The notes under the pieces were generated by a model that was given only the letters and a program-made list of their open reading frames with translations, had not been told where the DNA came from and made no database searches. This document shows positions 1,421-51,330 of a stretch of DNA of 64,000 bases, piece by piece (position 1 is the first letter of the stretch; each line of letters begins with the position of its first letter). The position numbers and the translations under genes are program-made. The stretch is from a virus: positions 6,559-70,558 of the IMG/VR virus record IMGVR_UViG_2914543266_000001; one strand, given 5' to 3'.

Positions 1421-3621
1421 GCCGTCACCTCCCCGATCGCGCCTTGGGTCTGCCCCGCCGCCTCACGCTGCAATCGCTCTGCCTTGGCTTTGAGCCAGGT
1501 ATATCGGCCATCACTCTCCCAGCCGTTCATCACCTGCGATCGCCTGCTCGCTGAGGTCTTCGACTTCGCATGCTGCAACTGATCAAAGGTGGTCGCCTCG
1601 ATCAATCGCTGCTCGAACTCCTGCCACCAATCGGGCTTCCCTGGGGTAATCCACGCATGGGTCACAGCGCCGGTGGCATCGCGGCATCCCTGGTCTGGTG
1701 GTGCAGGGCGGTTCAGTACCGGTTCAGCACCTTGGTCCTGCACGGAGCGCGATCGATCGACTGCTACTAAGGACTCTTGGCCCCCATTTGTTAGGGTTTC
1801 AGCCGTTGATTCAGGGCGTGCAGGAGGTACGGCACCTAAATAGTCACGATTCAATTCTTCTTTTTGTTGATCGCCTTCATTTTCTTTGTTTGAAAATTCC
1901 TCGGCTTTTTGGTCTTGTACGTCCTGCACGCCCTGGACAGCCGCCTCAAGTTGCGCCAATTGCTCTGGCAATGTCCGTGCGTCGTAGGGGTATAGGTGAC
2001 CATACTGGGTGGCCCAGGCCCTGAACAACTCAACGCCACCTTCGCCCAGCTTGGAAACGATGCACTCAGGAATGCCGCTATTGCTCTCAAAAAGCCCGTG
2101 ACGGATATTGATCCACACCCATTCGATCGGCACCATCTCACCTCCGATGTGGCGACGATCGACTATGTTCTGGGTCAATATGCTTTTCATCTCAGCTTTC
2201 CAATTGTTCAGAGCATGAGCCCTGACGTTGGCCGCTGCGCAGTAGGCCTTGTAGCAGCTGTAGAGCCAACCCACCTGCACTGGCTGCCGTGGCCCGTGAA
2301 TGTCGGCGGGTTCTAAGCATTCGTTGGCAAAAGCCCACACGCTACTGGTGCTGGCGGCAATGTCGTTGAAATATTGAGCGGCACGTTCGTTGTAGCGTTT
2401 GGGGTTTTTCAGGATTTTGTCGCGCAGTTCCCTATCCATCGACAGCGCCCAGGACACCACATCGGGCACCGACTCCATGAGTTCGTTCTCGAATTGCTCC
2501 GATCGCTGCTCATTTGGGATTGGCTGCGTAAGCACTGGCACCACTCGGCGCTCGAATCCACCGCTTGAACTCGAAGCCATCAGCAGCCCTTTGGCGCTGG
2601 CCACGATGTAACGGGTGTAGTTCACCTCGTTGTCGGCTTTACTGCTGTGCAGGTTGCGGGCGGCTACAGGGCTGCATTCAACCGAGTCGTAGAATGTGGC
2701 CAATCCACTATCTATAAATTCGTTAATGTCTGAGATAGCAACAACCCGGCGACCACTAATGAATTGGCGCACCTTGTCGGGGTCTTTGAAAATGGAAAAG
2801 CTGTTGGCCGCTTGCGTTGACTCACTGCTGAAAATGCTTTGAATCAAGCGAATAAATAAGCCTTTGCCTGAACCGCTCGACCCTTGCAAATGCAAAAACC
2901 GGTGGGGCGCGGTCATGTCTAGCATTAGCGCAATGCAGGCGCGGATGTAGTTATAGTCGCCATCGAAACTCGATTCGATGTAGCGGCGCATCGGCTCAGG
3001 GCATTCGGCCCCTTCGATGTAGTTGTGGGGCACTGAGGCCGTTAGCAGGTTGCCGGGGTCGTGGGGGCTCAGCTTGCCGGTCTTGGTCGATACGGTGCCG
3101 TTTTGGAATGCGAGCAGATCGCGGTTAAAAGTGGTGTCAGTTTTTTTGTAGAGCTTGCCCGCCGCCCATGCCATGGCGTTATTGACGTTCTTGATATGGG
3201 CCAAGGTGCCTTTGCGCTTGCCTTTGCCGTCCACCCAGTAGGCTTTCTCAGCTTCTTGGATGATCGAATGCCTAATTTCGTCATCGTCAATCCGTCTCCA
3301 ATAGCCCAAGCTGGGGTCGTATTCCCTGAAGTGCGACTTCAGCACCTGCACCTGCTTTTGCTCAAAGCACAGGCGAAACAACTCAACTTCTGCTGTGCTG
3401 CCTGCCTGGCATGCGTAGCTTTTGGCGGCGATATCTTCCTGTTGCTGGTCTTTCTCAAACTCGGCGATCTTTTGATCGACGCTGACCTTGGCCATCGTCT
3501 CAATCTTGGCCAGCCTATGTTTGGGCAAGCCCTTTGCTTTACGAGTGATGGATTCCAGAATCCCTTCAAGCCCTGCGTCGCTGACTTTCCAACGGTTTGA
3601 CGTGAATGCTGCTTCTGGCAT
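1417..3621 (-). CDS. P4/D5-family SF3 helicase with C-terminal winged-helix domain
   Basis: D5_N-like LLAFQNGTV..KTGKL.PHDP, Walker A GSSGSGKG, C-terminal VWAFANECL...LYSCYKAYC; start taken as ATG 3621 (ORF track extends to 3684). Confidence 0.9.
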   Translation of the reverse strand: MPEAAFTSNRWKVSDAGLEGILESITRKAKGLPKHRLAKIETMAKVSVDQKIAEFEKDQQQEDIAAKSYACQAGSTAEVELFRLCFEQKQVQVLKSHFREYDPSLGYWRRIDDDEIRHSIIQEAEKAYWVDGKGKRKGTLAHIKNVNNAMAWAAGKLYKKTDTTFNRDLLAFQNGTVSTKTGKLSPHDPGNLLTASVPHNYIEGAECPEPMRRYIESSFDGDYNYIRACIALMLDMTAPHRFLHLQGSSGSGKGLFIRLIQSIFSSESTQAANSFSIFKDPDKVRQFISGRRVVAISDINEFIDSGLATFYDSVECSPVAARNLHSSKADNEVNYTRYIVASAKGLLMASSSSGGFERRVVPVLTQPIPNEQRSEQFENELMESVPDVVSWALSMDRELRDKILKNPKRYNERAAQYFNDIAASTSSVWAFANECLEPADIHGPRQPVQVGWLYSCYKAYCAAANVRAHALNNWKAEMKSILTQNIVDRRHIGGEMVPIEWVWINIRHGLFESNSGIPECIVSKLGEGGVELFRAWATQYGHLYPYDARTLPEQLAQLEAAVQGVQDVQDQKAEEFSNKENEGDQQKEELNRDYLGAVPPARPESTAETLTNGGQESLVAVDRSRSVQDQGAEPVLNRPAPPDQGCRDATGAVTHAWITPGKPDWWQEFEQRLIEATTFDQLQHAKSKTSASRRSQVMNGWESDGRYTWLKAKAERLQREAAGQTQGAIGEVTA
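1812..1935. repeat. Putative replication origin inside the helicase gene: 19-bp inverted repeat around an 86-bp T-rich spacer
   Basis: CAGGGCGTGCAGGAGGTAC (1812-1830) vs reverse complement of 1917-1935 (CAGGGCGTGCAGGACGTAC), 18/19 match. Confidence 0.65.
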
Positions 3622-3623
3622 AG

Positions 3624-4478
3624 CTAAACCAACCCATATTGTTTGCGGTGAGCATCGACCTTGGCCTGCATAACCTTCACCCAAGCATTGGCCTGGTTGA
3701 GCTTGTGCACCGACTCGTAGGCGGCCTTGATTGAGTCGGCATAGTTCTGTTCATGACTTTTGCCGCCGAACATTCCGGCGAGGTCAAACCCATTAACCTT
3801 GTCTAGCCATGCTTCTAAAAATTCGCTGGGGCTCATGGCACTCTTCAACACCTGACGGTATGCAGCGACCTTTGAAACATCAGTGCGATCGCCGTGGATC
3901 TTGAAAAATTCACAGGCCCCACCCGTTGGGTAATCGGGCATCGTAGGGAATAGTGCGATCGATCCTTGAGTCCAGATTGCGGCACTGATCAATGCGGTCA
4001 TGACAGTGTGTTTCCTCCACCCGTCAGAGTCAAAAACGATTGTCATTTTGCAGTCGCGAGGCACTGAGTAAGGGATAGAATCAACGCCGACAAATGCCGC
4101 AGTGGTCACTCCTAACAGTGTCGGCATTGCCGCATCTTTCCAGCCCTCGGTGCCGACTTCACAATCGCTCAGCCTGACATTGGGGCGAACCCATGCGGCG
4201 GTGGCGGTGCCCCATGGGCCGAGGTACTTTTTGGTTTGGCCGTTTTCGTCTACAGGTTTGTCGAGGCGTATTTGGCCGTAGCCTTGAGAGAACGGAAAGT
4301 AAAGCCCTGAGTGATTGCCAAGCTTCATCAGCTTTGATTCGGAGGGAGAGAGGGATCTAACGCCCCATCCCTCACAGATGGCAATTTGCTCTGGCGTAAA
4401 GCCTTCATCAAGTAAATGGTTGTAATGGGCATCGGCGAGCTTGGTTGTGGATGCAACTGCGGTGAACGTAGCAACCAT
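3624..4478 (-). CDS. DUF3854-like / Toprim primase domain protein
   Basis: GTEGWKDA...IVFDSDG Toprim-type motifs; stop codon 2 nt before the helicase ATG. Confidence 0.8.
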   Translation of the reverse strand: MVATFTAVASTTKLADAHYNHLLDEGFTPEQIAICEGWGVRSLSPSESKLMKLGNHSGLYFPFSQGYGQIRLDKPVDENGQTKKYLGPWGTATAAWVRPNVRLSDCEVGTEGWKDAAMPTLLGVTTAAFVGVDSIPYSVPRDCKMTIVFDSDGWRKHTVMTALISAAIWTQGSIALFPTMPDYPTGGACEFFKIHGDRTDVSKVAAYRQVLKSAMSPSEFLEAWLDKVNGFDLAGMFGGKSHEQNYADSIKAAYESVHKLNQANAWVKVMQAKVDAHRKQYGLV

Positions 4479-4511
4479 GAGTCAAAATCCTGTAGCGCTA
4501 AGGTTTACTGT

Positions 4512-6434
4512 TTACTGAAAAATGAAAAGGCGGTGAGAGGCACGGGTCAGCGCCACGTAGAACAGTTGGTTTCGTTCGTAAACGGTGCCGCCGTTGTGCA
4601 GTCGGTTGCGGGCTTTGCACCGCTTCAGGTTCTGCACATCAACGAACACGTACTTAAACGTGCTGCCCTGGCTGCGGTGGGCCGTGAGGGCATAGCTGTA
4701 GGCGATCTGGGCAAAGAGGCGCTTCAGTGCCCAATACTTGCTCCAGTCTTTGGCCTTATGGCGGGCAGCCAGTTCAGCCTGATACTTGGCAGAGTTCTTG
4801 GGCACAGGCACCGTCTCACCCGTATCAAGCCTGAGGTAGTAGCATTCCCATCCCGATACACTACCCTCAAACAAACCCGTGACGGTGGCTTCATCCGAAG
4901 TATTCATAATTGGTTGACCACTGCCACCCGGCATGTAAGGCGCTAAGGCGATGATGCGCTCGCCCACCACCCATGGCTCGCGGTAGCCCAGGGCATTGCG
5001 CACCGCCACGTTGAGCATGTTTACTCTGGCGTTGGTGTAGGCCAGAATGCGGCAGGTGTCTGGATCGTCAAGGTACGCCTGCGAGGTGAATGCCGCCGCG
5101 ATCGTGCCCATCCACTCCTTTTCGGTGCTGACGTAAATGCCCTTATTTCCCTCTCCCACCTCGTGGATGATCTCAGGGTAGGCAGGTGCGTCTAGAGTTT
5201 GTCGCACCTGGTCAGCGAGCACTGCGATCGGGCCGTCGTACCGCTGCACTTGGGTAAGCTCGGCACTGGGGCAGGGGTGACGGAATGCCATTGACTCCGC
5301 TTCACCTACGGGGGGCAGCTGCGCGGCATCGCCCATCAACACGAACCGAGAACCGAACAACCCGCCATCGTGGATCGCGTCTAGCAGGAACTCCCATAGG
5401 TTCTCGCTGATCGTGCTGACCTCGTCGATGATGATGATGCGATAGTCCTGATAGTGCTGGTAGGCGTCGAGGTCGCGCTCGAACACCTCCTCGCCTGCAA
5501 CTTCCTTGCCACGTACACCGAACAACTGAGCGCAGGTGAAAGCGGGGATGCCCGTTAAACCCCACTTCGCCATCATGCGCTCCTGCACCTTCTTTGCCTT
5601 GTTGAAAGGCGCTGAAACTGCAAGCTTTGGGGGAATGGGCATCGCCCTGAGGTGGCGGACAAAGGCTTGAATCGTGGTGGTCTTGCCCGTGCCAGCGTAA
5701 CCGGTGAGCCTGAATAATGGGTCTTCGCTGTAGTACCAATCGCCTAGGGCCTGTAGGGCGGCGCGCTGCTCGTCGCTGGGGGTGAAATCGGCGGGGAATG
5801 TAAAGCCGCGGTCAATGCCGGGGCTGGCTAGCGACCCTGTCTCTACTGGTAGCACCTGGTTGACGTGGTGCCAAAGCGCGATCGTTTCCTTGGGAAACTC
5901 CTTGGGCTCGTCAGTCACAGGTGCTACCTCATTAGCATCAATCCACGACTCAACCTGATCGCGGTGCTTGCAGAACCCATTGCCAAAGGTGTCGCATTCG
6001 CAATTCAGCCGCAGCCCGTGGCGGGTCACGGTGTACTCACTGCGCTTCGTCAGGTTGCGCACCGTCCAGCGATCGCGCCCCTGCACCTCCACCTGTAGCC
6101 GGTCTTGGTATTCGGCTTTGATGGGGTAGGTGATGCCCAGCTTCTTTAGCTTGGCGCGGTGGGGGTGTAGCTCGATCATGGCCTGGATCTCTTCATTAGA
6201 ATTAATCCGCCCGATTTGTTCCTCGCCCCACGGATGCCAGTCGATCCAACCCTGGGTGATCGCGGTGTTCAATGCAACCACGATACGGTTGTGCTGATCG
6301 TCTACCGTTGTTTGGGCGATATGTGTATAATCTTTTGTAAGCATTATTTTGCTTGGCATCGTTTCCTGAGTTTCTGAGTAAGCGTTGTGCCTGATGACTA
6401 TTCCTGACTGAATAAATGGGGCGGACTTATCCAC
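4512..6434 (-). CDS. RecD/Dda-like SF1B helicase with SWIM zinc finger
   Basis: GYAGTGKT, IIIIDE, GDAAQLPPV, YALTAHRSQGSTF, YVALTRA; CECDTFGNGFCKH; true start probably ATG 6359 or 6344. Confidence 0.92.
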   Translation of the reverse strand: MDKSAPFIQSGIVIRHNAYSETQETMPSKIMLTKDYTHIAQTTVDDQHNRIVVALNTAITQGWIDWHPWGEEQIGRINSNEEIQAMIELHPHRAKLKKLGITYPIKAEYQDRLQVEVQGRDRWTVRNLTKRSEYTVTRHGLRLNCECDTFGNGFCKHRDQVESWIDANEVAPVTDEPKEFPKETIALWHHVNQVLPVETGSLASPGIDRGFTFPADFTPSDEQRAALQALGDWYYSEDPLFRLTGYAGTGKTTTIQAFVRHLRAMPIPPKLAVSAPFNKAKKVQERMMAKWGLTGIPAFTCAQLFGVRGKEVAGEEVFERDLDAYQHYQDYRIIIIDEVSTISENLWEFLLDAIHDGGLFGSRFVLMGDAAQLPPVGEAESMAFRHPCPSAELTQVQRYDGPIAVLADQVRQTLDAPAYPEIIHEVGEGNKGIYVSTEKEWMGTIAAAFTSQAYLDDPDTCRILAYTNARVNMLNVAVRNALGYREPWVVGERIIALAPYMPGGSGQPIMNTSDEATVTGLFEGSVSGWECYYLRLDTGETVPVPKNSAKYQAELAARHKAKDWSKYWALKRLFAQIAYSYALTAHRSQGSTFKYVFVDVQNLKRCKARNRLHNGGTVYERNQLFYVALTRASHRLFIFQ

Positions 6435-9189: not shown

Positions 9190-9621
9190 TTATAAAACTT
9201 TGCCGTAGTTTATCGCGGATTTCTGCGGAATGCTAAGCATTGGCCACGCCTGCGCCATCTTAGGGTCACCTGCTTTATGCGCGACGTTTAATTGCCGCAA
9301 GTGTTCCTGATTACTCAGTAGATCAGCCAAGGTCGTGCGGCGGGGGTTGGTGCCGGCAACCTGGCAGAGCAGCCGCAGCTTGGCTCGATAGCGGTCTCTG
9401 GGTGCTTTGCCCTTGGCCTTGGCCCATTGCGCGTCGTAGCACTGGCTGCACAAGCCTTTGGCATAGTGAGGGCGATCGGGGTGGCATGTGGCATTGGTAG
9501 GGGAAGGTGCCCGCCGTTTGCCCTTACCCCACTGCGATTTATAGCATTTGCTGCACAGACCTTTGGCATGGTAGGGGCGATCAGGATGGCATGTCGGCGG
9601 TGCGGCAATTTTGCGAGACAT
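9190..9621 (-). CDS. Protein with two Cys/His zinc-finger repeats
   Basis: TCHPDRPYHAKGLCSKCY and TCHPDRPHYAKGLCSQCY; ATG 9621 follows the promoter motif at 9637-9648. Confidence 0.7.
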   Translation of the reverse strand: MSRKIAAPPTCHPDRPYHAKGLCSKCYKSQWGKGKRRAPSPTNATCHPDRPHYAKGLCSQCYDAQWAKAKGKAPRDRYRAKLRLLCQVAGTNPRRTTLADLLSNQEHLRQLNVAHKAGDPKMAQAWPMLSIPQKSAINYGKVL

Positions 9622-9688
9622 TACATTGGGGCGGTTGTATCGTATCACTCTAGGAATGTTAGCATTTCGGGGTAGTTGCGATCGCCCC

Positions 9689-10300
9689 ATGGCCAACATG
9701 AAGCCCGCCAAAAGCAAAGATTTTCGCACCCAGGCCCGGAATGCCAACGGGCACACCGATGAAGGTATGGCGATGCTTGAGTCATCGATCGAAGAGGTTG
9801 GCTGGTTTGGCGCGATCAGTGTTGCCGCTGATGGTGAGGTGTTTGACGGCAGCGCTCGCCAAGAGGTGGTGTCTAAGGTATTGCCCGAGGATGCGGTGGT
9901 ATATGACTCCGATGGCACAAAGCCTATCTACATACGGCGGGTGGATATTCCCAACGCTCAAGACCCTAGGGCAGTAAAGGCAGGGATTTTAGCGAATCGT
10001 GTGGCCGAAAAGAACCTTTCTTGGGAGTCAGTCAACCTCGATGACATCTCGCAGGATGTTGATTTAGGCGATTGGTTTGCTGAGGAAGTGCTAGCCGATC
10101 TGATCGATGAGCTAGACACCACTACCAGCCGCTTCACCGATGACCCGGACAAAGAGACCCCGTCGATTGGGGAGGGCGGCACACCTCTGGCGATCGTGCT
10201 GTCCTCGTCGGAGTTGAAAGAGTGGCAGGTGATGAAGGAAGTCGCCGGCACGCAGTCGGATAAGACAGCATTTTTGAAACTTATGCGAGGTGAGATCTAG
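9689..10300 (+). CDS. ParB/Srx-like N-terminal domain protein
   Basis: NANGHTDEGMAMLESSIEEVGWFGAISVAADGEVFDGSAR resembles phage ParB-like proteins found near terminases. Confidence 0.7.
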   Translation: MANMKPAKSKDFRTQARNANGHTDEGMAMLESSIEEVGWFGAISVAADGEVFDGSARQEVVSKVLPEDAVVYDSDGTKPIYIRRVDIPNAQDPRAVKAGILANRVAEKNLSWESVNLDDISQDVDLGDWFAEEVLADLIDELDTTTSRFTDDPDKETPSIGEGGTPLAIVLSSSELKEWQVMKEVAGTQSDKTAFLKLMRGEI

Positions 10301-10380
10301 GCTGGCAGATACATCAATTGAATTCCGGGCTTGGAACGCTATATCTTGGATAGAATTGAGCAAACCGTAAGGTATAGCGA

Positions 10381-10938
10381 ATGGCCTCTGGCGCGGTGCG
10401 GCAAAAATTGGGAACAAGGTTTGGCGCAGGCGGAGGCGGCGCAACTAGAAGTGCCCAAAATAGTGGTAAGGACGGCAAAAACACAGCAGATAATTCATCC
10501 TTTACAGAAAATCGATTTGCTAGCATTAGGCCTTCGGATGCTGATGTTGACGGATTCGTTAAGGCGTATGCATCAAAGAACGGCGTAGAAGCAACGCGCA
10601 CTGCTGTCCTTAAGTCAATCATGAAAAGTGATTTCCCTGCTCAGTCACTAGAACCAAAACGTTCTTGGAGTCGGCAACGCAACGAGGAAGCAGGGAAGAG
10701 AACAAATGCGTTACTCACTGATCATCTCAAGATATTTCATGAGGCTAGATCCATCTCTCGTGTAGCTGGAGTCGGTGCAGTACCTAAGACAAAAGCCGAA
10801 TTTAATCGATCGCGCCGCCAGATTGTAGCCAAAGCTCACCCCGACGCTGGGGGCACTGCGAGGGGCTTCGCTGCGGCTCAAACGCGGTTGAGGTCGCTTG
10901 AACGACGACTGAAAGATTTGGGGATTCCAGATAACTAG
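10381..10938 (+). CDS. Basic protein with MASxAVRxKxGxxFG leader and C-terminal J-domain-like HPD motif
   Basis: MASGAVRQKLGTRFGAGGGG; RRQIVAKAHPDAGG. Confidence 0.75.
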   Translation: MASGAVRQKLGTRFGAGGGGATRSAQNSGKDGKNTADNSSFTENRFASIRPSDADVDGFVKAYASKNGVEATRTAVLKSIMKSDFPAQSLEPKRSWSRQRNEEAGKRTNALLTDHLKIFHEARSISRVAGVGAVPKTKAEFNRSRRQIVAKAHPDAGGTARGFAAAQTRLRSLERRLKDLGIPDN

Positions 10939-10972
10939 TGGATGCGAGATATGACCGCGCTTTGGAACTTAT

Positions 10973-12217
10973 GTGGAGCGAGATTTGATGCAAAATGGTG
11001 ATACGTTTGTGCCATTCTATGGCGGCTTTTTTGCGTCTCCGGTGCCGCTAGAGTTGAGTTTTAACTGGTGCAGCCACAACTGCCACTATTGTTTTGCGAA
11101 CCTCTCCAAGCCCAACCGACGGTCTGACATTGGGGCTACGGTCAACCTGCTGCAAAACTATCGCAGCCGCAGCACTCTAGAGGCAAAACTATTGCAGCAG
11201 GGTTACCCAACCCTCGTTAGCAACCGGGTAGACCCATTCGCCGCATCTAACTACCGTCAATCTCTGCCGGTGCTTGAGATGATGTGCGAGCTGGGCCTAC
11301 CGTTATCGTTCCAAACCAAAGGGGGGCGAGGCATTAACGAAACGCTCGACATACTCAAAGCCCCCACGGTATGGTACATCACGATCGAAACTGATCAAAA
11401 CGAATTGGCCAAGCAGATCGCACCTGGTGCCCCCAGCATTGACGAGCGCTTTGAGCTAATCGATCTACTCATCAGCCGTGGCCACTTCGTCTGCGTCGGC
11501 ATTAACCCCTGCGTGCCCGAGTGGTTCAACGACGATCGCGCCTTCCTGCAACGGCTCTACGATGCAGGCGTCTGGGGCGTGTGGTGCCAGGAGCTGCACT
11601 TCAACACCAACCAACTGCGCAATATGCCACCGCGAGGCAAGGATGCGATCGGGCCTGAGCTGATCAAGCGATGTTCTAAAAAGAAAGTCGAGCTAGTCGA
11701 TTATCACTACGCTGATCAGATGGCGGAATGGGCGCAGGAGATTGGCCTAGAGCCATTTGTAGACGGGCAGTGTCGGCGATCGAACTACTGGGACGTGTTC
11801 TTCGCCTGTTACGAAAAGACATTCCCCACGCAGCAAGAGTTTATAAATTGGTGCCATGACGAGCTTAAAACAGGTGACACCATTACATTCTCGGATTACT
11901 TAGCATTCTGGGAGGGCGAACTACCCGAAGGCATCATGCAACTTGGGCACTATATCTGTAGCCAGAACTATAGCCTGTGTAAGGCACTGGCTCAGGAGTC
12001 TGGGCGGAAATGGGATCACAAAATGACCTATGCCGACTTGCTTGGATTATCATTTGGAGATACCCGCATACCGTTCAGCCCCGGCAGTACCCTAGGTTTT
12101 CGTTATGCCGTAACACCTCAAGGTGAAACGTGGGTCGATGAAGCCGGGCAACCAATCCTTGTATGGATGGGCGGCGAATCGTCCACGGAACTGACAACTG
12201 TTGTAGAGGATTTATAA
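10973..12217 (+). CDS. Radical SAM enzyme, spore-photoproduct-lyase (COG1533)-like family
   Basis: CSHNCHYC (CxxxCxxC); DPF, FQTKG, ITIETD..LAKQIAPGAPSIDERF, VGINP motifs. Confidence 0.88.
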   Translation: MERDLMQNGDTFVPFYGGFFASPVPLELSFNWCSHNCHYCFANLSKPNRRSDIGATVNLLQNYRSRSTLEAKLLQQGYPTLVSNRVDPFAASNYRQSLPVLEMMCELGLPLSFQTKGGRGINETLDILKAPTVWYITIETDQNELAKQIAPGAPSIDERFELIDLLISRGHFVCVGINPCVPEWFNDDRAFLQRLYDAGVWGVWCQELHFNTNQLRNMPPRGKDAIGPELIKRCSKKKVELVDYHYADQMAEWAQEIGLEPFVDGQCRRSNYWDVFFACYEKTFPTQQEFINWCHDELKTGDTITFSDYLAFWEGELPEGIMQLGHYICSQNYSLCKALAQESGRKWDHKMTYADLLGLSFGDTRIPFSPGSTLGFRYAVTPQGETWVDEAGQPILVWMGGESSTELTTVVEDL

Positions 12218-12517
12218 ATGGCTTCATCTGCGGTGCGATCGAAGGTTGGGAGAAAGTTTGGAGGCAGTGGCGGCGGCGGGACTGGTGGAGGAACAAGAAA
12301 GGTCAGTGTTTCATCTGCTGACAAAAATAGTCGAAAGGCTGCGATTCGAGAAAGTATCAATAATCGTCGCGATCTTAGCGGCGGCTTTGTGAATCTAAGC
12401 CGTAATGCCACGATGATTGCAGAACGCAGCAGGTCATACCGTGGGGCTTCTGGGCCAACAAAAGCGGCGACAGCAGTGGCGGCTAGCGGTGGCTATGTAA
12501 CTCGTCGTAGACGTTAA
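12218..12517 (+). CDS. Small Gly/Arg-rich basic protein with shared leader
   Basis: MASSAVRSKVGRKFGGSGGGG; 21 K/R vs 4 D/E; starts directly after the radical SAM stop. Confidence 0.75.
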   Translation: MASSAVRSKVGRKFGGSGGGGTGGGTRKVSVSSADKNSRKAAIRESINNRRDLSGGFVNLSRNATMIAERSRSYRGASGPTKAATAVAASGGYVTRRRR

Positions 12518-12567
12518 CGTTTTGGGCACCTATTCAACTGTCAACAGCATCTTTAAGGGTTCATGAA

Positions 12568-12762
12568 ATGGCTTCATCTGCGGTGCGATCGAAGGCTGGC
12601 GGCAAATTCGGCGGCAGCGGAAATGCTCCGACAAGGCAAAGAACTTTGACGCCAGTAAGACGGATCGATCGCGCAGAGTTGGCCCAGCGCCGGATCGCAG
12701 TAGCCGGATCGCAGGCCAGCAGGCTTGGCGGTCGCAATCGCTTTATTGGGCTAGGTAGTTAG
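12568..12762 (+). CDS. Small Arg-rich basic protein with shared leader
   Basis: MASSAVRSKAGGKFGGSG; first 28 nt identical to the 12218 gene; 13 K/R vs 2 D/E. Confidence 0.72.
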   Translation: MASSAVRSKAGGKFGGSGNAPTRQRTLTPVRRIDRAELAQRRIAVAGSQASRLGGRNRFIGLGS

Positions 12763-12769
12763 GGCATAG

Positions 12770-13261
12770 ATGGCAGCTCGCATCGACTGGAGTTACTGGC
12801 GGCATAAATACGTCACAGGGGATGACTCGGTGACGCATGAAGCGTTGTCTAGGATACCTAATGCACCAGCCCTAATAACCCTTAAAAAGCGTTCTGCGCT
12901 TGAGTCGTGGACAAAGCAGCGCGACGAGTTTAGGTTGCGCAAACATACTGTGGTATCTAGTGACCCTGCCGCGATCGCAGCTGCTGAAAAAGTCAATCAG
13001 CTGGTAGATATCGCCGCCATGGTGACTCAGCACGACAAAATCGGGCGAGCATTGGAAGGCGTTGCAGGCAAGTGGCTAAAGCAATTTGAAGAGAACCCCG
13101 AACTCATTAAAAAGATGCCCGCCCGCGACATAGCTACCCTGTTGCGCATAGGCCTAGACACCCGCCGCATGGCCGCTGGCCTCGCCACACAGCACCAAGA
13201 GATCGACCTATCAGGCCTTAGCGATAAAGCACTCGAAAGGATACTCAAGGGTGACGTATAG
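12770..13261 (+). CDS. Terminase small subunit
   Basis: DW...KYVTG N-terminus, helical body, overlaps the terL start. Confidence 0.75.
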   Translation: MAARIDWSYWRHKYVTGDDSVTHEALSRIPNAPALITLKKRSALESWTKQRDEFRLRKHTVVSSDPAAIAAAEKVNQLVDIAAMVTQHDKIGRALEGVAGKWLKQFEENPELIKKMPARDIATLLRIGLDTRRMAAGLATQHQEIDLSGLSDKALERILKGDV

Positions 13262-14759
13262 CCTACGGCTCAGGGCCGCCGCAGAACTAGAGCGCAGACG
13301 TCGTCAGGGCAACACCGATCGCAGCCGCCCATTGCCTGACTGCCTCACCCCAGAGCCAGGGGAACACCCCGCCGCATTCCTCGCTCGATCGCTGCCAAAG
13401 TCCTCCCTCATTCCCACAGGCGATCGCCACAATGCCGTATGGGAATGGCTGGCCTCACTACAGCCAGGGCAACCTGCCAAACCTCGCGTCGAGATATGGG
13501 GCCGGGGCGGTGCCAAAAGTACGATCGCAGAGATGGCTTGTGCCTACCTCGCCTGCACCCTCACCCGCAGGTTTGCGCTGTATGTCTGTGGCACGCAGGA
13601 TCAGGCGGACCTGCACGTACAGGCGATCGCGGCTCTGCTGGAGCAGATGGGCATTCCTCGCGCGGTCAATGCCTACAGCGCGTCGGTGAACTGGACGGCC
13701 CAGAAGCTACAAACAATCAATGGGTTCGGCGTCGTGGGCGTAGGCCTCAACAGCCGGGTGCGGGGGGCGCGCCTGGGAGAGTTCCGCCCTGACTTAATCA
13801 TCCTCGACGACATCGACGAAACCCACGATAGCCCGCAGGCGGTCACCAAAAAGCTAAAGACCGTCACTTCTGCCGTGTTCGCCGCTGGCAGTGCCGACGC
13901 TACGGTGCTATTTATCCAAAACCGCATCCACAAAGACAGCGCGATCGCCCAGGTCGCCGACGGTCGTGCCGAGATTCTCCTAGGGGCTACGGTCACTCAG
14001 GAACCTGCCGTGCGCGATCTCGAAGTCGAGCGCATCACAACAGGCGACGGCCCACGCTATCGCATTATCGACGGCACTGCGACCTGGCCCCAGGGGCAAA
14101 GCCTAGAGGTCGCAGAGAAGCAGATCAATGAATGGGGCTTACAGGTATTCCTATCGGAGTCGCAGCACGAGGATGCGCCTGATGGTGGACTCTGGAACCG
14201 CGATCGCGATATCGACCCTTACCGCGTTGAATCTGCACCACCGCGCCTCACGCTAATTGCGATCGGCGTTGACCCCAGCGGCAGCCTGGGCACTGAGGCA
14301 GGGCTAGTCACCGCTGGCCGAGATGATGCAGGACACATCTACATTATGTCCGACGACTCGATGGCGGGCACTACGAACCAATGGGTGCAGCAAGGCATCA
14401 GCCGATACCACCGCATGCAGGCCAATGCGATCGTCGCTGAGCGCAACTATGGCGGCGATATGGTCAAGACGCTGTTCCACAATGCCGATCAGCGGGTAGC
14501 CGTCGTGGAGGTGTCGGCCTCGCGGGGCAAGCTAGTGCGCGCCGAGCCAGTGCATCAGGCCTACGAGGAAGGGCGTGTGCACCATGTGGGCCACTTCCCT
14601 GAGCTAGAGCGCGAGATGTGCACCTGGCAGCCGGGGATGCCCTCGCCCAACCGCTTGGACGCCTTGGTGTGGGTCTGTATCTACCTGATGGGCAATGCCC
14701 CTCAGCAGATCGCCACGGCACCGATCGCCACGCCGCACCCCTACGCTAGTACTTTTTAG
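13251..14759 (+). CDS. terL: Terminase large subunit
   Basis: GRGGAKS, LIILDDID, FIQN ATPase motifs; IGVDPSG, ERNYGG, SPNRLDALVW nuclease domain. Confidence 0.95.
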   Translation: MTYSLRLRAAAELERRRRQGNTDRSRPLPDCLTPEPGEHPAAFLARSLPKSSLIPTGDRHNAVWEWLASLQPGQPAKPRVEIWGRGGAKSTIAEMACAYLACTLTRRFALYVCGTQDQADLHVQAIAALLEQMGIPRAVNAYSASVNWTAQKLQTINGFGVVGVGLNSRVRGARLGEFRPDLIILDDIDETHDSPQAVTKKLKTVTSAVFAAGSADATVLFIQNRIHKDSAIAQVADGRAEILLGATVTQEPAVRDLEVERITTGDGPRYRIIDGTATWPQGQSLEVAEKQINEWGLQVFLSESQHEDAPDGGLWNRDRDIDPYRVESAPPRLTLIAIGVDPSGSLGTEAGLVTAGRDDAGHIYIMSDDSMAGTTNQWVQQGISRYHRMQANAIVAERNYGGDMVKTLFHNADQRVAVVEVSASRGKLVRAEPVHQAYEEGRVHHVGHFPELEREMCTWQPGMPSPNRLDALVWVCIYLMGNAPQQIATAPIATPHPYASTF

Positions 14760-14803
14760 GGGTTCCCTATATATCAATACTATTTAACCTTTAACTGTTA
14801 CAG

Positions 14804-14848
14804 AAAAAGGGCTTAAAGCTTTCTACACCAAGGCTTTGAGCCTTTTTT
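14804..14848 (+). terminator. Intrinsic terminator after terL
   Basis: AAAAAGGGCTTAAAGC...GCTTTGAGCCTTTTTT. Confidence 0.7.
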
Positions 14849-14880
14849 ATTGCGCCCCCACGCACCGCCCAACCGAGCAA

Positions 14881-15013
14881 GGGTGCAGGGGGTGCGGGGA
14901 GTGCAGGGGTCGAAATGTGATTTTTTTCGTGTGATCGCACTCCAAAAAATGGAATGCGATCACACACTTTTTTTGAGCTTTTTTGCCCTGCACCCCTCGC
15001 ACCCCCTGCACCC
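14881..15013 (+). repeat. Dispersed palindromic element, copy 1 (core orientation A)
   Basis: GGGTGCAGGGGGTGCG... left arm, ...CGCACCCCCTGCACCC right arm; inner hairpin GTGTGATCGCA-CTCCA-AAAAA-TGGAA-TGCGATCACAC. Confidence 0.95.
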
Positions 15014-15211
15014 GGTGATGCGATCGCACTGCACCCTAGAGACAAAGTTCTGTGGCCGCACTTTGCCTCTATCTAACTCGCCGTCGACCTGGCTCAGGGG
15101 TTTAGTTGACAAATTGAGTTTAGTTGACGGGTTTAATTAACTTGCTTGCCCTGTTAACCAAGACAGCGCGATCGCACCCCTCGATCGCTCAACCGCTGAT
15201 TCCTTCGTCAA

Positions 15212-15345
15212 GGGTGCAGGGGGTGCGAGGGGTGCAGGGGTCAAAACTTGATTTTTTTCGTATGATCGCAGTCGAAAAAAATGGAGTGCACACACTCACT
15301 TTTTTTAGCGTTTCGAGGGTCGCACCCCCTGCACCCCCTGCACCC
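15212..15345 (+). repeat. Dispersed palindromic element, copy 2 (core orientation A)
   Basis: Same arms and T-tracts; sits just upstream of the portal promoter. Confidence 0.95.
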
Positions 15346-15397
15346 ATTCCAAGCATGAGGCAGTGTCATACAATAGACGGAACGATCGCGAGAGCCC

Positions 15398-16666
15398 ATG
15401 GCCGATCCAGTTGCAGGGAAATTAGCGGCTGCCGTTGAAGCATTCGCCCAAGAGTTATTGCAGGAGGTCGCGCCGCCCGACGATCGCGGCAACGTGATCA
15501 CTGATTTTGTGGACATGATCACGACCAACCCCAGGGCTGGGGCAGGCGTCGAGGTGAGCGTCTTGAACCTGCTGCAACGAATGGGTGAGTATAAGCACCC
15601 TGACCAGGCGATCGATGATCACATCCAAGAGCAGTTTGCTCAGATGGATGGCGGCATGAAAATCTCATACGCCGAGATGGCGACCGCCAAGCCGATCGGG
15701 TGGAGCGCCAGTGAGTTTGCACTGCGAGAGCCCGTAGACGGCAAATGGTGGATCGAGTCGCTGATGCTGATTCCACCGAAGTATCACAAATTTGAAGGGA
15801 GGCTGGGGAAAATTGAGGGGGCCAAATATTTCCCCACCACGGGGCCAGAGTTCACGATTCCGTACGATCGCATCGTGCATGTGGTCAACAGAAGGCATGT
15901 GGCAGCCCTGACCGATCGCCCTTTTTATGGCGTGGCCGATTGCCGTCTGGCGATCTCGGCGCACAGGGCATGGAAGATTGTCATTAATGAGGCACTGATC
16001 GCAGGGCAGCGGCAGGCCACGCCGATCATTGTGGGCCTGGCTGATCACAACTCACAGGTGCCCTTGTACGACGATCGCGGCGTGCCATTGCGAGATTCGG
16101 CAACGCAGCAAATTATCTCGGTGCCAGCCCCTGACAAACTAAAGCGAGAATTGCAAGCGCTCAACACCAATGGCGGGGTGATTACGGCGGGCCTGGGCAG
16201 TGACATCAGGGCACTGAACCATCAAACCGATGGCGCGTTCTTCATGCAGCTGCTCGACTACCTCGATCGCACCCTCATGCAGGCGTTCATGGTGCCCTAC
16301 AGCGTCCTTGAGAATGGCGTGCAGGGTTTGGGCAATGCGGGCCTGGCCGAGACTCAGGTTGATGTGATGGTGATGATGCTGGATAGCATGGCGCAGCAGA
16401 TCCAAGAGGAACTGCTAGAGAAGGTGATCCGCCCGCTGATCGAGTGGAACTTTGGGGAGCAGGAGAGCTACGGCGAATGGATGCCGCCAGACGAGGAAGC
16501 GCACGATCGCATTGAGCTGATGAACGCGCTGACCCAGTCCTTTGCGTCGGGCATGTATAGCGCGAGCGATGAGGCTTTTGTGAACCGGCACCGCGAGCTG
16601 GCCGGGATTCCGAAGGCTGAGCAGTTGGTGACGGCGATGAGTAAACCAGTGAGGTATTGGGATTAA
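15398..16666 (+). CDS. Portal protein (DUF935 / Mu gp29-like)
   Basis: Follows terL; size 422 aa; typical motifs (IPYDRIVHV, G.PIIVG, IRPLIEWNFG). Confidence 0.88.
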   Translation: MADPVAGKLAAAVEAFAQELLQEVAPPDDRGNVITDFVDMITTNPRAGAGVEVSVLNLLQRMGEYKHPDQAIDDHIQEQFAQMDGGMKISYAEMATAKPIGWSASEFALREPVDGKWWIESLMLIPPKYHKFEGRLGKIEGAKYFPTTGPEFTIPYDRIVHVVNRRHVAALTDRPFYGVADCRLAISAHRAWKIVINEALIAGQRQATPIIVGLADHNSQVPLYDDRGVPLRDSATQQIISVPAPDKLKRELQALNTNGGVITAGLGSDIRALNHQTDGAFFMQLLDYLDRTLMQAFMVPYSVLENGVQGLGNAGLAETQVDVMVMMLDSMAQQIQEELLEKVIRPLIEWNFGEQESYGEWMPPDEEAHDRIELMNALTQSFASGMYSASDEAFVNRHRELAGIPKAEQLVTAMSKPVRYWD

Positions 16667-17397
16667 TGCAGCTGATTCAAGACCCACACTTCCGTGTCGA
16701 GATCGATCGCAATGCCAGCAGCGCTAATGCCCCAGCGGGTATTTGGTACGGGCAGCACACTTGTGTCACTGAGGGGTTTAGCCCTGACGACCCACTGCCC
16801 AAAGATCCCGAGGGGGCGATCCTACGCCATGCCCTCAAGTCTGAGCACAGTCCTCACTTTTCGGTGCTGCGTTATGGCTACCTAGCGCTGCACTGTGGCG
16901 GGTTCCCTCACTCGGTCATGGCCCAACTGACCCGGCATCAGGACTCGGCGCACCTGGTGCAGTCAGGTCGGTACACGGGGCAGCGGTTTGTGAGAGTTGC
17001 CCTTGGTGGACTGCCCGTAGACCAAGTGTTTTACTTCCGGCCCCTAGGAACCTACCAGGACAGGCAGGGGCATCGCTACGAATACACAGCCGAAGAACTG
17101 GCCTATGACCGATTCGCTTGTCTCAAAGCCTGCGAGCGCTATGCCTACCGACTAGAGAAGGGCTGGGCCGAGGAACACGCCCGCGATCAACTGCCCTACA
17201 ACTTCCGCCAGAACTTTGCGATCGCGGGCGATCTGCAATCAGTGTTCCATATCTTGGATCAACGGTCAAAAAATGACAGTCAAATAGAAATCCAGTCGTG
17301 GGCGGGCATGGCCATGGAACGCGTGATTGAGTTCGTACCGCAAATTGGCCAGTGGTACAAAGAACATCGATATGGCCGGGCAAGATTGGCTCCGTAG
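16657..17397 (+). CDS. thyX: FAD-dependent thymidylate synthase
   Basis: EHSPHF, FPHSVMAQLTRHQ...VQSGRY, ARDQLPYN motifs. Confidence 0.9.
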   Translation: MGLMQLIQDPHFRVEIDRNASSANAPAGIWYGQHTCVTEGFSPDDPLPKDPEGAILRHALKSEHSPHFSVLRYGYLALHCGGFPHSVMAQLTRHQDSAHLVQSGRYTGQRFVRVALGGLPVDQVFYFRPLGTYQDRQGHRYEYTAEELAYDRFACLKACERYAYRLEKGWAEEHARDQLPYNFRQNFAIAGDLQSVFHILDQRSKNDSQIEIQSWAGMAMERVIEFVPQIGQWYKEHRYGRARLAP

Positions 17398-17448
17398 CAT
17401 GCCGCTGTTTCAGGCTCGGAATGGTAAAATAGGTGTACCGGGCAGTGC

Positions 17449-18228
17449 TTGCAACACCCCCGGAATGGCAACCTAGTTTCGGTAGGTCACATGAATAATT
17501 TACCACCTCTTGTCAAAGACCGACGAGGCATGAAGTTTGGTCGGCTGTTGGTCAAAGAGTTTGTCAAAGTTGAAAACAGGCGCTCTTATTGGCTTTGCGA
17601 GTGTGACTGTGGCAATACCAGCATCGTCATGGGAGTAAATTTAAGGCACGGCGGCGGCACCAATAGTTGTGGTTGCGCATCCAAGGAAGCGATCGCAAGC
17701 ACTGGCAAGCTGAGGCCAAGCAAGTCACTAGCCCCAGCAGGCCCAGATTACAGAAGACTTTGGAAGATTCGGGTGGGCATGATCGCTCGATGCTATGACC
17801 CCCGACAATTGTTTTACAAAGACTACGGCGGCAGGGGCATCACCGTTTGCGATGAGTGGCTGCACAGCTTTGATGCTTTCTACTTTTGGGCGATCGCATC
17901 TGGTTATTCCCCTGAACTTTCCATAGACAGAAAGAACAACGACGAAGGCTACAGCCCTGATAATTGCAAGTGGTCAACCGCAAAAGAGCAGGCCCACAAC
18001 AGAAGATCCAGCAAAAGATACGAAGCCTTTGGTGAGTCAAAAGTGCTGGAAGAGTGGGGGCGAGATAGTCGTGCCGTAGTGTGCAAAAACACAATCAAAA
18101 TTCGTGTAGCTAATGGCTGGGATTTTCAATCTGCAATGACTACCCCTGCGATGCCTAGGCGCGATCGCGCACTGCTAGGGCACCAAGGGCGAAGGAAGAA
18201 AACAGAAAAGAGGATTGAAACATGCTGA
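17449..18228 (+). CDS. HNH homing endonuclease
   Basis: KFGRLLV..WLCECDCGN..SCGC; YGGRGITVCDEW; SIDRKNNDEGYSPDNCKW. Confidence 0.88.
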   Translation: MQHPRNGNLVSVGHMNNLPPLVKDRRGMKFGRLLVKEFVKVENRRSYWLCECDCGNTSIVMGVNLRHGGGTNSCGCASKEAIASTGKLRPSKSLAPAGPDYRRLWKIRVGMIARCYDPRQLFYKDYGGRGITVCDEWLHSFDAFYFWAIASGYSPELSIDRKNNDEGYSPDNCKWSTAKEQAHNRRSSKRYEAFGESKVLEEWGRDSRAVVCKNTIKIRVANGWDFQSAMTTPAMPRRDRALLGHQGRRKKTEKRIETC

Positions 18229-18902
18229 TCTACATTGCTGGCCCATATCGTGGCGACGTTAAGCAGAACATTGAGAATGCTCGCAAAGCTGCAATTGCAG
18301 TGTGGCAAGCAGGACATGTCGCTATCTGCCCCCACCTCAATACCGCCAATTTTGAGGAAGATTCTGGCCTAGCTGACGAGGTCTACCTCAAGGGCGACTT
18401 GGTGATTTTGCAGCGGTGTGACGCTTGCCTATTTCTGCCGAACTGGAAGCAATCGGAGGGGGCGATCGCCGAGCGTGAATTCTGCGAGGCCCAGGGCATT
18501 GCTTGCTATACCCTCATGGGTGGCAGTATCGACGGCGATGAAATCTCTGGGTGGCAGCTGCCTGCGTTAATGCCATGCCCTCACCCTGTAGAGCGTGATT
18601 GCCCGCAGCAGGTTGAGGGGTTTATGTCGGTGTTGATGGGCATGTATCGTTTGCACCTCAGCAAAAATATGGACTACTCGCCAGCCAACATCTTGGGCAC
18701 TGGCGAGGTCGGCACCGTCGTGAGGCTGTGGGACAAAATCGCCCGGCTTATGAACTTGATGGGGTTTCAGTTGCAGGTACAGCCCGGCACCTATTCATCG
18801 CCCAAAGACCCTAAGCATGAGAGCGTCAATGACACTTTGATGGACGCTGCAAATTATGCCGTCATTGCCCTGCTGTACCGCATGGGCAAATGGGGCCGCT
18901 AA
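18222..18902 (+). CDS. DUF4406 (nucleoside deoxyribosyltransferase-like) fused to DUF1599/Nmad1 (MazG-like) domain
   Basis: IYIAGPYRG...LQRCDACLFLPNWKQSEGAIAE; KNMDY...VRLWDKIARL...ESVNDTLMDAANY. Confidence 0.8.
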   Translation: MLIYIAGPYRGDVKQNIENARKAAIAVWQAGHVAICPHLNTANFEEDSGLADEVYLKGDLVILQRCDACLFLPNWKQSEGAIAEREFCEAQGIACYTLMGGSIDGDEISGWQLPALMPCPHPVERDCPQQVEGFMSVLMGMYRLHLSKNMDYSPANILGTGEVGTVVRLWDKIARLMNLMGFQLQVQPGTYSSPKDPKHESVNDTLMDAANYAVIALLYRMGKWGR

Positions 18903-19465
18903 ACCCTGCACTTTATACCCTATACCCACCCATGACCAAACCCAACCTCTCTCCTCTGTTCGATCGCATCAATGCCCGTGCCTACGCCATTCTTCAGCAG
19001 CATGGCAAGACGCTGGAGCAGCTGCAAGAGTACACCGTTGAACAGCTCAACGAGATCAAAGGCATCGGCGATCGCTGGGCCACCGACATCCGCGCCGCCC
19101 TAGACTCGCTGCAACCTGTCCCCGCCGTCACCGATCCACCAGATTGGGAGTACATCGACACGGATGCACCTACTGCGATCGAACTGGCCCACACCCCCAT
19201 GGATGAGCTGAGCGACGCTGAGGGCGCGACCTTGCTTGAGGCAGTATTGACCGAGGTGCCCGACGACGAATCGCCCCTAGACATGGCCCTGCGCTATCTG
19301 AGGGAGTGTGGCCGCGAGGCTGATGCGGAGGTGTTAGCGCGCAAGGTCGATCGCGATGGGGCCGATGCAGTGACGGAGACTGCGATCGCGATCTTGGAAG
19401 GGTTGCCCGGTGGGGAGCTGCCGAAGAACCTGGCGCAGGATGTCAGGGAGAAGGCGGGGCTATAA
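18890..19465 (+). CDS. Acidic protein with helix-hairpin-helix motif
   Basis: TVEQLNEIKGIGDRWATDI. Confidence 0.6.
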   Translation: MGPLNPALYTLYPPMTKPNLSPLFDRINARAYAILQQHGKTLEQLQEYTVEQLNEIKGIGDRWATDIRAALDSLQPVPAVTDPPDWEYIDTDAPTAIELAHTPMDELSDAEGATLLEAVLTEVPDDESPLDMALRYLRECGREADAEVLARKVDRDGADAVTETAIAILEGLPGGELPKNLAQDVREKAGL

Positions 19466-50199: not shown

Positions 50200-51330
50200 A
50201 TGGTTTCTTCGTTTGTCGATTTTTATACTCGAAACACTCGCCTTGTGGGTGCTGCGGTCAATAATACCGATCGCGAACTCATGGAGAGTACCGCGCCCCT
50301 AGATGCCTTGTTCCCTATCACTTCATACCAGAGCACCGAATTGCTGCTGCTGAAAATGCAGGGCAATATCACGGTGGCTTCAATCGTAGCTCCAGACCAG
50401 GAATTGCCTAACGATGACGGCAATTTCACCCTAACCGAAGAGCTGTTGGGTCGTACTTTGATCGGTAAACAGCATGTGTTTCTAGACAAGGAATACGAAG
50501 GCCTCGAGAAGATGCGGGTTTACTTGGCAGCCGGCGGGGCGCAGGGCGCGGCGGTTGTTACGGCATATGAGAAATATCTCTATGGCCTTGCAGCAGACAT
50601 GCCCGCTGCGATCAATGCCAAGCATCTGATCCTGCTGATGCAGGTGATGACCACGGGCCGTTGTGAGTACACAGACCCGCTGACTGAACTGCGGGTAGAA
50701 ATGACTTACCAGGATCGCGTCGCTGACTTGTTTCCTGCGGCACTCACCGGCACTGCTCGATGGAGCCAGCCCACCACGGCTACGGGGTTGACCGATCTAG
50801 ACAACCTCAGCGAAGAGTGGCGCGACATTCACGGTTCAAAGCCGACATGGATGCTGGCCCACTACGACGACCTCCGCAATTTGGCCAACCAGGCTTTTAC
50901 TAAGCAAGCCTTGGGCGCAATGAGTGGCACGCAGTCAGACCAAAACAACTCTCTGTACCTCGCCGTTTCGTACGATCGCAATTCACTGGAGCTTGCCCCA
51001 GGGCCATTGCTCGAACTGATCCAGGCGCGCACCGGGGTGTCTCGAGTGCTGATCGTTGACGCTAAATACGCCGAAACGACCAAAGCTGGGATCAAGCGGA
51101 CCGAGTATTACCTACCTGAGCACTATATCTGCTTTGGCGATGAGATGGGCATGTACGAGCGCGCACGCGTGCCGTTTAAGGAAAACAACTTTGCCCCTGG
51201 CATCTACGTTGCGACCAAGCAGCTAGACGACGCGCCCCTGCGTGAGCGCCTTGCCGGGATGTCGGCGGGTGTGCCCTTTGTCCGCGATGGTCGTTACTTG
51301 AGCGCTCAGAAGATCGATGGTGACGCCTAA
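50200..51330 (+). CDS. Major capsid protein (lambda gpE-like)
   Basis: 376 aa after the scaffold and decoration genes; GGAGG RBS; capsid-E-like layout. Confidence 0.8.
   Translation: MVSSFVDFYTRNTRLVGAAVNNTDRELMESTAPLDALFPITSYQSTELLLLKMQGNITVASIVAPDQELPNDDGNFTLTEELLGRTLIGKQHVFLDKEYEGLEKMRVYLAAGGAQGAAVVTAYEKYLYGLAADMPAAINAKHLILLMQVMTTGRCEYTDPLTELRVEMTYQDRVADLFPAALTGTARWSQPTTATGLTDLDNLSEEWRDIHGSKPTWMLAHYDDLRNLANQAFTKQALGAMSGTQSDQNNSLYLAVSYDRNSLELAPGPLLELIQARTGVSRVLIVDAKYAETTKAGIKRTEYYLPEHYICFGDEMGMYERARVPFKENNFAPGIYVATKQLDDAPLRERLAGMSAGVPFVRDGRYLSAQKIDGDA

Follow-up and report, generated by a model that had tools for sequence, protein, structure and literature searches.

In a cyanobacterial prophage, three proteins share a short N-terminal sequence, here called the tag, and nothing else, and their genes bracket a gene for a radical S-adenosylmethionine enzyme (rSAM), accompanied by a ParB-like gene, immediately ahead of the terminase genes. 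The cluster lies at 9.6-14.8 kb on the plus strand of a 64,000-nucleotide stretch of the IMG/VR record IMGVR_UViG_2914543266_000001; the whole of this stretch is referred to below as the window. Two features mark the window, which corresponds to 36404-100403 of contig C23 of a 6.16 Mb genome (G000), as a prophage in a cyanobacterium: the HIP1 octamer GCGATCGC of cyanobacteria occurs in it 83 times, and it carries terminase, portal, and tape-measure genes. The same combination of tagged genes, rSAM, and ParB-like gene recurs in other phages, among them uncultivated phages of other bacteria in which the tag precedes toxin-like enzymes; the three travel exclusively with one another, and selection on the tag acts at the level of the protein. 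We tentatively favor a reading in which the tag is an address that would be recognized, and probably modified, by the rSAM/ParB-like pair on proteins that are packaged into the virion and injected into the host.

The tag and the cluster that carries it

The three tagged open reading frames (ORFs) begin with MASGAVRQKLGTRFG (at 10381), MASSAVRSKVGRKFG (12218), and MASSAVRSKAGGKFG (12568), and conform to the pattern MASSAVRSKxGxKF. The similarity extends over 14-20 residues, past which identity among the paralogs drops to 17%. Recognized in the ORF list by this shared N terminus, they encode plus-strand products of 185 aa (tagged protein 1, 10381..10938), 99 aa (tagged protein 2, 12218..12517), and 64 aa (tagged protein 3, 12568..12762), all free of cysteine; the second and third are strongly basic, with 21 Lys/Arg against 4 Asp/Glu and 13 against 2, respectively. 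Between the first and the second lies the rSAM gene (10973..12217, +), which is identified by its CSHNCHYC motif and a match to PF04055 (E 5e-10) and whose database copy starts at the ATG at 10988 and encodes 409 aa. The start codon of tagged protein 2 immediately abuts the rSAM stop codon. The ParB-like gene (9689..10300, +) encodes a ParB/Srx N-domain and a conserved C-terminal segment (phrog_620, ParB-like, E 2e-8); its reading frame is open from a TTG at 9611, and the ATG at 9689 is the likely start. A preliminary description made from the sequence alone had reported this arrangement, with a terS gene 7 nt beyond the last tagged ORF, as well as the divergence past the leader, the charge counts, and the lack of cysteine; all the ORFs are as it described them, and a recount of the charges agrees.

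Tag copies 2 and 3 are identical across 28 nt, where shuffled sequences give an expectation of 0 matches, and neither the rest of the window nor that of the 6.16 Mb genome yielded any further copies. Such identity would suit a functionless remnant of duplication or a DNA-level repeat, for instance a recombination box or a shared translation-initiation region. The codon usage of the tags contradicts this explanation. When tag codons and upstream DNA were compared in seven genomes, the tags of paralogs from the same genome proved to have 67-94% of their residues in common. Of these shared residues, however, 32-60% are encoded by different codons, with both serine codon families represented, and identity beyond residue 16 is only 0-17%. 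Upstream of the tagged genes, a ribosome-binding site is the sole common feature of the DNA. Since the residues are thus kept through abundant synonymous change while the upstream DNA is not conserved, a DNA repeat or recent duplication is excluded as the source of the similarity, an origin to which we give hardly any credence, and selection on the tag acts on the protein.

The cluster continues into the packaging genes. The small terminase subunit gene, terS (12770..13261, +), starts 7 nt after the end of tagged protein 3; it has no family match of its own in Pfam or PHROG and is assigned by its position and by its similarity to the gene preceding terL in two related loci, L004 and L006. Tagged protein 3 is the positional counterpart of a small basic protein encoded between rSAM and terS in these same two loci. 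The large subunit gene, terL, follows (13251..14759, +; phrog_38, E 6e-57; PF17289), and then the portal gene (15398..16666, +; phrog_113, E 6e-17). On the plus strand between 9.6 and 14.8 kb, the gene set consists solely of the ParB-like gene, rSAM, the three tagged ORFs, terS, and terL, and a promoter and terminator scan of the cluster returned nothing exceeding chance. Some neighboring features deserve mention. On the minus strand, an ORF at 9190-9918, whose 5' part as drawn overlaps the start of the ParB-like gene, encodes a duplicated CHPDRPxxAKGLCxxCY zinc-ribbon unit with weak HNH-type PHROG matches. The gap between terL and the portal gene contains two palindromic elements of about 135 nt each (14878-15013 and 15209-15345), with arms built of 9-nt GGGTGCAGG-like units. 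Beyond the portal gene, at 16657-18902, a thyX gene (PF02511) that overlaps the portal stop codon is followed by an HNH gene and by a DUF4406/DUF7768 deoxyribosyltransferase-like gene; the presence of such nucleotide-metabolism genes within the late operon hints at modified DNA.

Recurrence of tag, enzyme, and ParB-like gene

Loci of the rSAM family were gathered from public assemblies, IMG/VR, and metagenomes, and distant COG1533 rSAMs, mostly actinobacterial and taken from genome-contig and metagenome scans, served only as control loci. By a profile built from five of the ParB-like neighbors, such a gene stands beside rSAM in 23 of the 27 testable family loci and abuts the rSAM start in 19; in the window and in the prophage of Oculatella sp. 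LEGE 06141, a tagged gene is placed between the two. Counted over the interval from -45 to +160 nt around the rSAM stop, ORFs with a tag-like start are present in 16/29 family loci, where they begin 0-32 nt past the stop, as against 4/139 controls; these figures are to be read with the provisos that the regular expression was written after the tags had been seen and that the loci are not independent. The start codons of tagged ORFs often abut or overlap the rSAM stop. The suggestion in the preliminary description that the shared N terminus is a functional tag linked to the enzyme thus finds strong comparative support in its recurrence, its codon use, and this enrichment.

Eight phages carry between two and nine tagged genes each. 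The Oculatella prophage encodes four proteins starting MASKGGSWKSGKF, three of which flank rSAM while the fourth is encoded 12 kb downstream; the host strain, as named, appears to belong to a culture collection. Locus L092 has four that start MAASGGHWKSGxF, one of them upstream of rSAM; L210 has three that start MAVGLGNGKSG; and L212 and L213 have two each. The largest set, nine proteins starting MAAAGGSWKGGSF, is found on a 33 kb IMG/VR contig, G001, where four of the genes follow rSAM and the rest lie between terL and the portal gene, after the portal gene, and before the capsid genes. Tagged genes are present on both sides of rSAM in three distant phages. Many other loci have a single small, basic, cysteine-free ORF with an MA..GG start directly after rSAM, and several relatives encode only a peptide of 30-45 aa at this position. 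Among the diverged family members beside which the tag recurs, rSAM identity is 38-61%.

Across these genomes, the tag comprises about 13 residues, with an MA start, small or glycine residues next, and at positions 9-11 a core of the form basic-x-Gly. The version common to many phages is MA[AS]xGGxWK[SG]GxF, and the consensus over 20 genomes reads M, A, small, small, G, G, x, W, K, S/G, G, x, F. The window version lacks the tryptophan and retains the Lys-x-Gly core and the phenylalanine. After the tag comes a flexible Gly/Ala/Ser linker and then a freely exchangeable cargo. A 161-aa cargo from L210 is homologous to a 196-aa cargo from Oculatella (36% identity, E 1e-23), and each carries the tag variant of its own genome, the two aligned position by position; the tag therefore follows the genome rather than the cargo.

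What the tag-bearing phages have in common is largely confined to the module itself. At a BLASTP threshold of 1e-5, the only proteins common to the window, G001, and the Oculatella prophage are the rSAM and the ParB-like protein, to which one pair adds part of terL. Tag-bearing phages otherwise vary in their terminases (Terminase_3 or Terminase_6) and portals (SPP1-, HK97-, Mu-, or DUF4055-type). A scan of IMG/VR for M-A-[AST]-x-G-G-x-W-K gave 64 loci, among which 12 ORF starts continue as [SG]-G-x-F, a continuation that the pattern did not constrain; these fall on three contigs, all with rSAM. Scans of IMG/VR with patterns for the window-type and L210-type tags found nothing. Because no shared head proteins are detectable, terminases and portals vary, and the tags recovered from IMG/VR occur only in rSAM-carrying contigs, the tag is seen to travel with the enzyme pair, and it is on this account that we favor its recognition by the rSAM/ParB-like module. 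The temperate phages in which the module is present have cyanobacteria and Bacteroidota, among others, as their hosts, and no description of it was found in the searchable literature.

Several observations on individual loci bear on how such motifs are counted. Unrelated motifs mimic the tag in IMG/VR DNA scans (L117-L129, L347-L425), namely a C-terminal ...MAARGGSWK followed by a stop and an alternative-frame MASRxRxWKSGNFAQASS, and these look-alikes call for caution in any census by regular expression. A pair of ORFs in L094 that emerged from the N-terminus screen was not counted as tagged, as its paralogy is longer and it lies away from rSAM. Beside the family rSAM of L132, two ORFs (4799-5209 and 5450-5803) share a longer module in which an acidic stretch (EETEENLQ) precedes CGRGGGP[GS]AKSGGGGGA; as called, their K-S-G core is not at the extreme N terminus. 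In two high-GC, tagless loci, a 199-aa gene of terS-like appearance directly follows rSAM (L098, 2099-2698; L102, 6630-7229) and starts MPRAPRTPKTG or MARPPRTPKKG, so that residues 9-11 are Lys-x-Gly, just as they are in the tag. The L006 locus encodes duplicate ParB N-domains: one (3092-4324) forms part of an N6/N4 DNA methyltransferase fusion, the other belongs to a stand-alone ParB-like protein (4381-5001) that abuts rSAM, and over a stretch of at least 45 residues the two are identical.

The enzyme and its candidate substrates

A search of 5.8 billion proteins found 147 relatives of the rSAM, many of them on contigs of 40-78 kb; JGI annotates relatives as "DNA repair photolyase," and the enzyme is a distant COG1533-type protein belonging to a phage and prophage family. 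No member of this family was found in 50,697 GenBank phage records, and the window region and three diverse family members, when compared with GenBank phages, yielded nothing beyond weak core matches; in a scan of 401 cyanobacterial genomes, the family was confined to the window's own genome. The best match in the AlphaFold database (AFDB) is Rv2578c (E 4e-12, TM 0.47-0.56). The Rv2578c and PA0069 families, both uncharacterized, resemble the phage enzyme in having a minimal rSAM core, as does spore photoproduct lyase (SPL), but its NCBIfam scores are far below their cutoffs (36 bits against 430 for Rv2578c and 24.6 against 360 for PA0069), and it differs from them in its last ~150 aa, which form an extra, family-specific domain without a clear relative. 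This C-terminal domain is confidently folded, has no AFDB cluster match, and is only weakly winged-helix-like in the predicted structure (Z 4.8 or less); it offers no means of choosing between peptide and DNA as the substrate.

The AlphaFold2 model of the enzyme has a predicted local distance difference test score (pLDDT) of 94, and the folds nearest to its core are those of pyruvate formate-lyase (PFL)-activase (Z 16.6) and SPL (Z 16.2). PFL-activase acts on a glycine in a protein loop, and SPL handles a thymine radical; the two tie in whole-enzyme fold searches, so that the substrate class is not discriminated. PFL-activase is nonetheless the best solved match, which would lend support to a protein substrate. 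Among 30 aligned family sequences, the only invariant cysteines are C33, C37, and C40 of the CxxxCxxC motif; therefore, the enzyme has one Fe-S cluster and no SPASM/twitch site. The same alignment has no invariant fourth cysteine of the kind that serves as the catalytic hydrogen donor of SPL outside the cluster. By sequence, no solved relative was found, and the family profile retrieved no SPL chain from the PDB at E<=1. Hence, where the preliminary description had called the enzyme SPL/COG1533-like, the second half of the label stands, at a distance, and the first, which has no sequence match in either NCBIfam or the PDB, was overstated.

The pairing of an rSAM with neighboring products that vary beyond a constant leader follows the logic of ribosomally synthesized and posttranslationally modified peptides (RiPPs), and the preliminary description had offered such a system as one interpretation. 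In its classic form, the three ORFs would be precursors whose cores are modified by the rSAM and whose leader is then cleaved to release a small bioactive product, and the relatives that encode just a 30-45 aa peptide right after rSAM would fit it. The resemblance to the systems for streptide, darobactin, PQQ, and the sactipeptides is real in two respects, the conserved N-terminal recognition sequence with a variable remainder beside rSAM and the service of several precursors by a single enzyme. An auxiliary Fe-S (SPASM or twitch) domain is present in most peptide-modifying rSAMs, whereas the three invariant cysteines of the phage family leave no place for one. There is likewise no PqqD or RiPP recognition element (RRE) match in Pfam, the C-terminal domain offering only the weak winged-helix resemblance given above, and no leader peptidase or exporter is encoded in the cluster. 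Moreover, the clients are free of cysteine and include full-size, folded enzymes (217-751 aa), their cores have no common element for an enzyme to recognize, and the conserved part is probably itself the target. Thus, we consider a classic RiPP system very unlikely, even if the logic of recognition that suggested it is retained in the reading we favor.

The other interpretation of the preliminary description combined a packaging tag on basic head proteins with a DNA enzyme, by analogy with the small acid-soluble spore proteins (SASPs) and SPL. Its general part is compatible with the data; the analogy finds no support. In a SASP/SPL-type pair, the basic proteins would coat the packaged DNA, and the enzyme would repair lesions resembling the spore photoproduct after injection. 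The strongly basic character of two of the window proteins, the photolyase annotation of the relatives, and the place of SPL among the two best structural matches all speak for such a pair. On the other hand, the enzyme lacks both an SPL sequence match and the invariant fourth cysteine, and its fold is matched equally well by PFL-activase. The basic tagged proteins of the window have no Pfam match of any kind, and hence none to a SASP family, and the occurrence of the same tag on ADP-ribosyltransferase (ART) and NUDIX enzymes would be left unexplained. We regard this pairing, too, as very improbable.

Cargo, head loading, and significance

In many loci the tagged products measure 30-99 aa; in others they are 185-751 aa long and contain enzyme domains. 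Where a locus has a single tagged product, it is mostly short, basic, and unstructured in appearance. ART cargo is found in two independent cases, Oculatella and L213, with matches to Alt-like and virion-protein PHROGs; the Oculatella protein matches the C termini of the virion proteins phrog_21789 and phrog_595. One NUDIX enzyme is found as cargo in relatives of the window. The remaining cargoes are mostly ORFans, and those of G001, L210, and L095 have no family matches. In the window, tagged protein 1 consists of the tag, a Gly-rich linker, and a cargo that contains an HPD motif and has no recognized fold; it has no Pfam, PHROG, or NCBIfam match, and its cargo has one homologue, from a metagenome, at 70% identity. 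The HPD motif lies in a J-domain-like segment at the C-terminal end that is kept in this homologue, and an identity as a J domain was rejected, as the DnaJ HMM gives no match even at E 10. A further locus (L267 and L268, IMGVR_UViG_3300029288_000527) encodes a GT2 glycosyltransferase, an FkbM methyltransferase, and an NAD-dependent epimerase/dehydratase at 13176-19157 in the head module, flanked by tagged genes; these enzymes could glycosylate DNA or protein.

The closest precedent for a common N-terminal peptide on unrelated phage proteins is provided by phage T4, in which Alt carries the same capsid targeting sequence (CTS) as the internal proteins (PMC3012670), and the statement in the preliminary description that no system of either kind had been described must be corrected in this regard. 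As in the present case, a short conserved peptide precedes unrelated proteins (IPI-III and Alt), some of them small and basic and others ARTs, and the genes lie among the late and head genes, with a hypervariable cargo set (PMC3012670, PMC9503650). T4 differs in having neither an rSAM nor a ParB-like partner and in that its CTS works through the scaffolding core, whereas the tag is conserved across phages without detectable shared head proteins. We know of no sequence resemblance between the CTS and the tag. It has been argued that ART and NUDIX domains whose genes lie next to those of the terminase and portal are packaged in the head and injected (PMC9503650, PMC5512222). The present cargo is comparable to the ART and NUDIX effectors of MuF-toxin fusions and polyvalent proteins, which are encoded in the packaging or head module and predicted to be injected (PMC5512222, PMC9503650); there, delivery relies on covalent fusion to a structural domain, whereas here a 13-residue tag would take its place. 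By analogy with these systems, the ART and NUDIX cargoes and the tagged genes located among the terL, portal, and capsid genes of G001 support head packaging.

The same facts are accommodated by a serious rival that we rate as possible but doubtful, namely that two independent functions meet at one site. The tag would direct internal or ejected proteins into the prohead in the manner of the T4 capsid-targeting peptide; rSAM and the ParB-like protein would be a postreplicative pair that modifies DNA bases, drawn by analogy with the ParB-dependent thymine dioxygenases; and the two would be adjacent only because both are late genes. The placement of the ART and NUDIX cargo in the head module fits packaging on this account as well (PMC9503650, PMC3012670). 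For the DNA-modifying pair, there is a parallel in the 5mYOX/ParB systems. In these, too, the gene for a short ParB-like protein adjoins an enzyme gene immediately before the phage terminase genes, and experiments have demonstrated that a ParB-like protein activates a phage DNA dioxygenase (PMC13229309); they differ in that the enzyme is an Fe/2-oxoglutarate (5-methylpyrimidine) dioxygenase rather than an rSAM and in that they lack a set of tagged proteins.

The observations that weigh against an action of the pair on the tag mostly strengthen this rival. The pairing of the ParB-like gene with rSAM, which abut in most loci, is tighter than that of rSAM with the tag and probably older than the tag. 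The family loci L097, L098, L102, and L141 have no tag, and a distant phage, Dulem virus 36 (L465/L466, PP511521.1), encodes a ParB, a methyltransferase-like protein, and a 261-aa PA0069-type rSAM (50581-52521) just before its terminase, with no ORFs sharing a tag. ParB-like partners are known for DNA-modifying enzymes (PMC13229309), and the fusion of a ParB N-domain to a DNA methyltransferase in L006 and the thyX and DUF4406 genes adjoining the portal gene of the window point in the same direction. SPL, a DNA enzyme, matches the rSAM fold as well as PFL-activase does. Finally, M1 and A2 are the sole strictly invariant residues of the tag across genomes, and the provisos attached above to its enrichment beside rSAM apply here. 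Against the rival stands the expectation that a targeting peptide should covary with the scaffold, portal, or capsid, whereas no structural protein common to the tag-bearing phages is detectable, and their portals and terminases belong to different families. The restriction of the tags to rSAM-carrying contigs in the IMG/VR scan and the bracketing of rSAM by tagged genes on both sides in three distant phages are also poorly explained by two functions that are merely neighbors.

A third possibility would unite protein and DNA, in that an SPL/Rv2578c-like rSAM brought to DNA by the ParB-like protein would couple the core Lys or Gly of the tag to a DNA base, giving either a peptidyl hypermodification or a covalently tethered protein. 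Such a reaction would account for all three conserved partners at once, and it would be in keeping with a fold equally close to the enzymes of the thymine radical and of the protein glycyl radical and with the mostly short, basic, and unstructured-looking single products; amino acid adducts on thymine are known in phages (PMC5889632). The proposal is, however, purely inferential, cargoes of 500-750 aa could not follow the DNA through the portal, and none of the known amino acid hypermodification kinases or transferases was seen in the window cluster with Pfam or PHROG. Hence, we consider it improbable.

The reading that we favor, with the reserve that these points impose, is that the rSAM and its ParB-like partner modify the 13-residue tag on full-length proteins and that this modification licenses exchangeable effectors for packaging and injection. 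The ParB-like, rSAM, and tagged genes would all be expressed at the head of the late operon, with the tag serving as the recognition handle for both the ParB-like protein and the COG1533-type rSAM. Most likely, the enzyme would abstract a hydrogen within the tag, which would thereby be modified, and the tagged proteins would be loaded into the head and delivered with the DNA; it is these last steps, the action on the tag, its chemistry, and the packaging, that we infer. The delivered set would comprise three cysteine-free proteins in the window, two of them strongly basic, and Alt-like ARTs and a NUDIX enzyme in its relatives. If tag modification does license packaging, whole proteins would here be recognized by the logic known from RiPP precursors, and this recognition would be tied to the loading of the virion.

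These phages thus appear to possess an undescribed way of marking proteins that they probably carry into the host. If the tag is a portable address for loading into the head, it would be the second example after the T4 CTS, and a mechanistically distinct one, and it would provide a handle for spotting injected antidefense and host-takeover proteins, most of which are ORFans in the present set. If the rSAM modifies the tag, radical-SAM peptide chemistry would be extended from small natural products to whole proteins, and the large uncharacterized branch of enzymes related to Rv2578c and PA0069 would gain its first functional context. If the ParB-like/rSAM pair instead acts on DNA, the module would represent a new ParB-dependent DNA modification.

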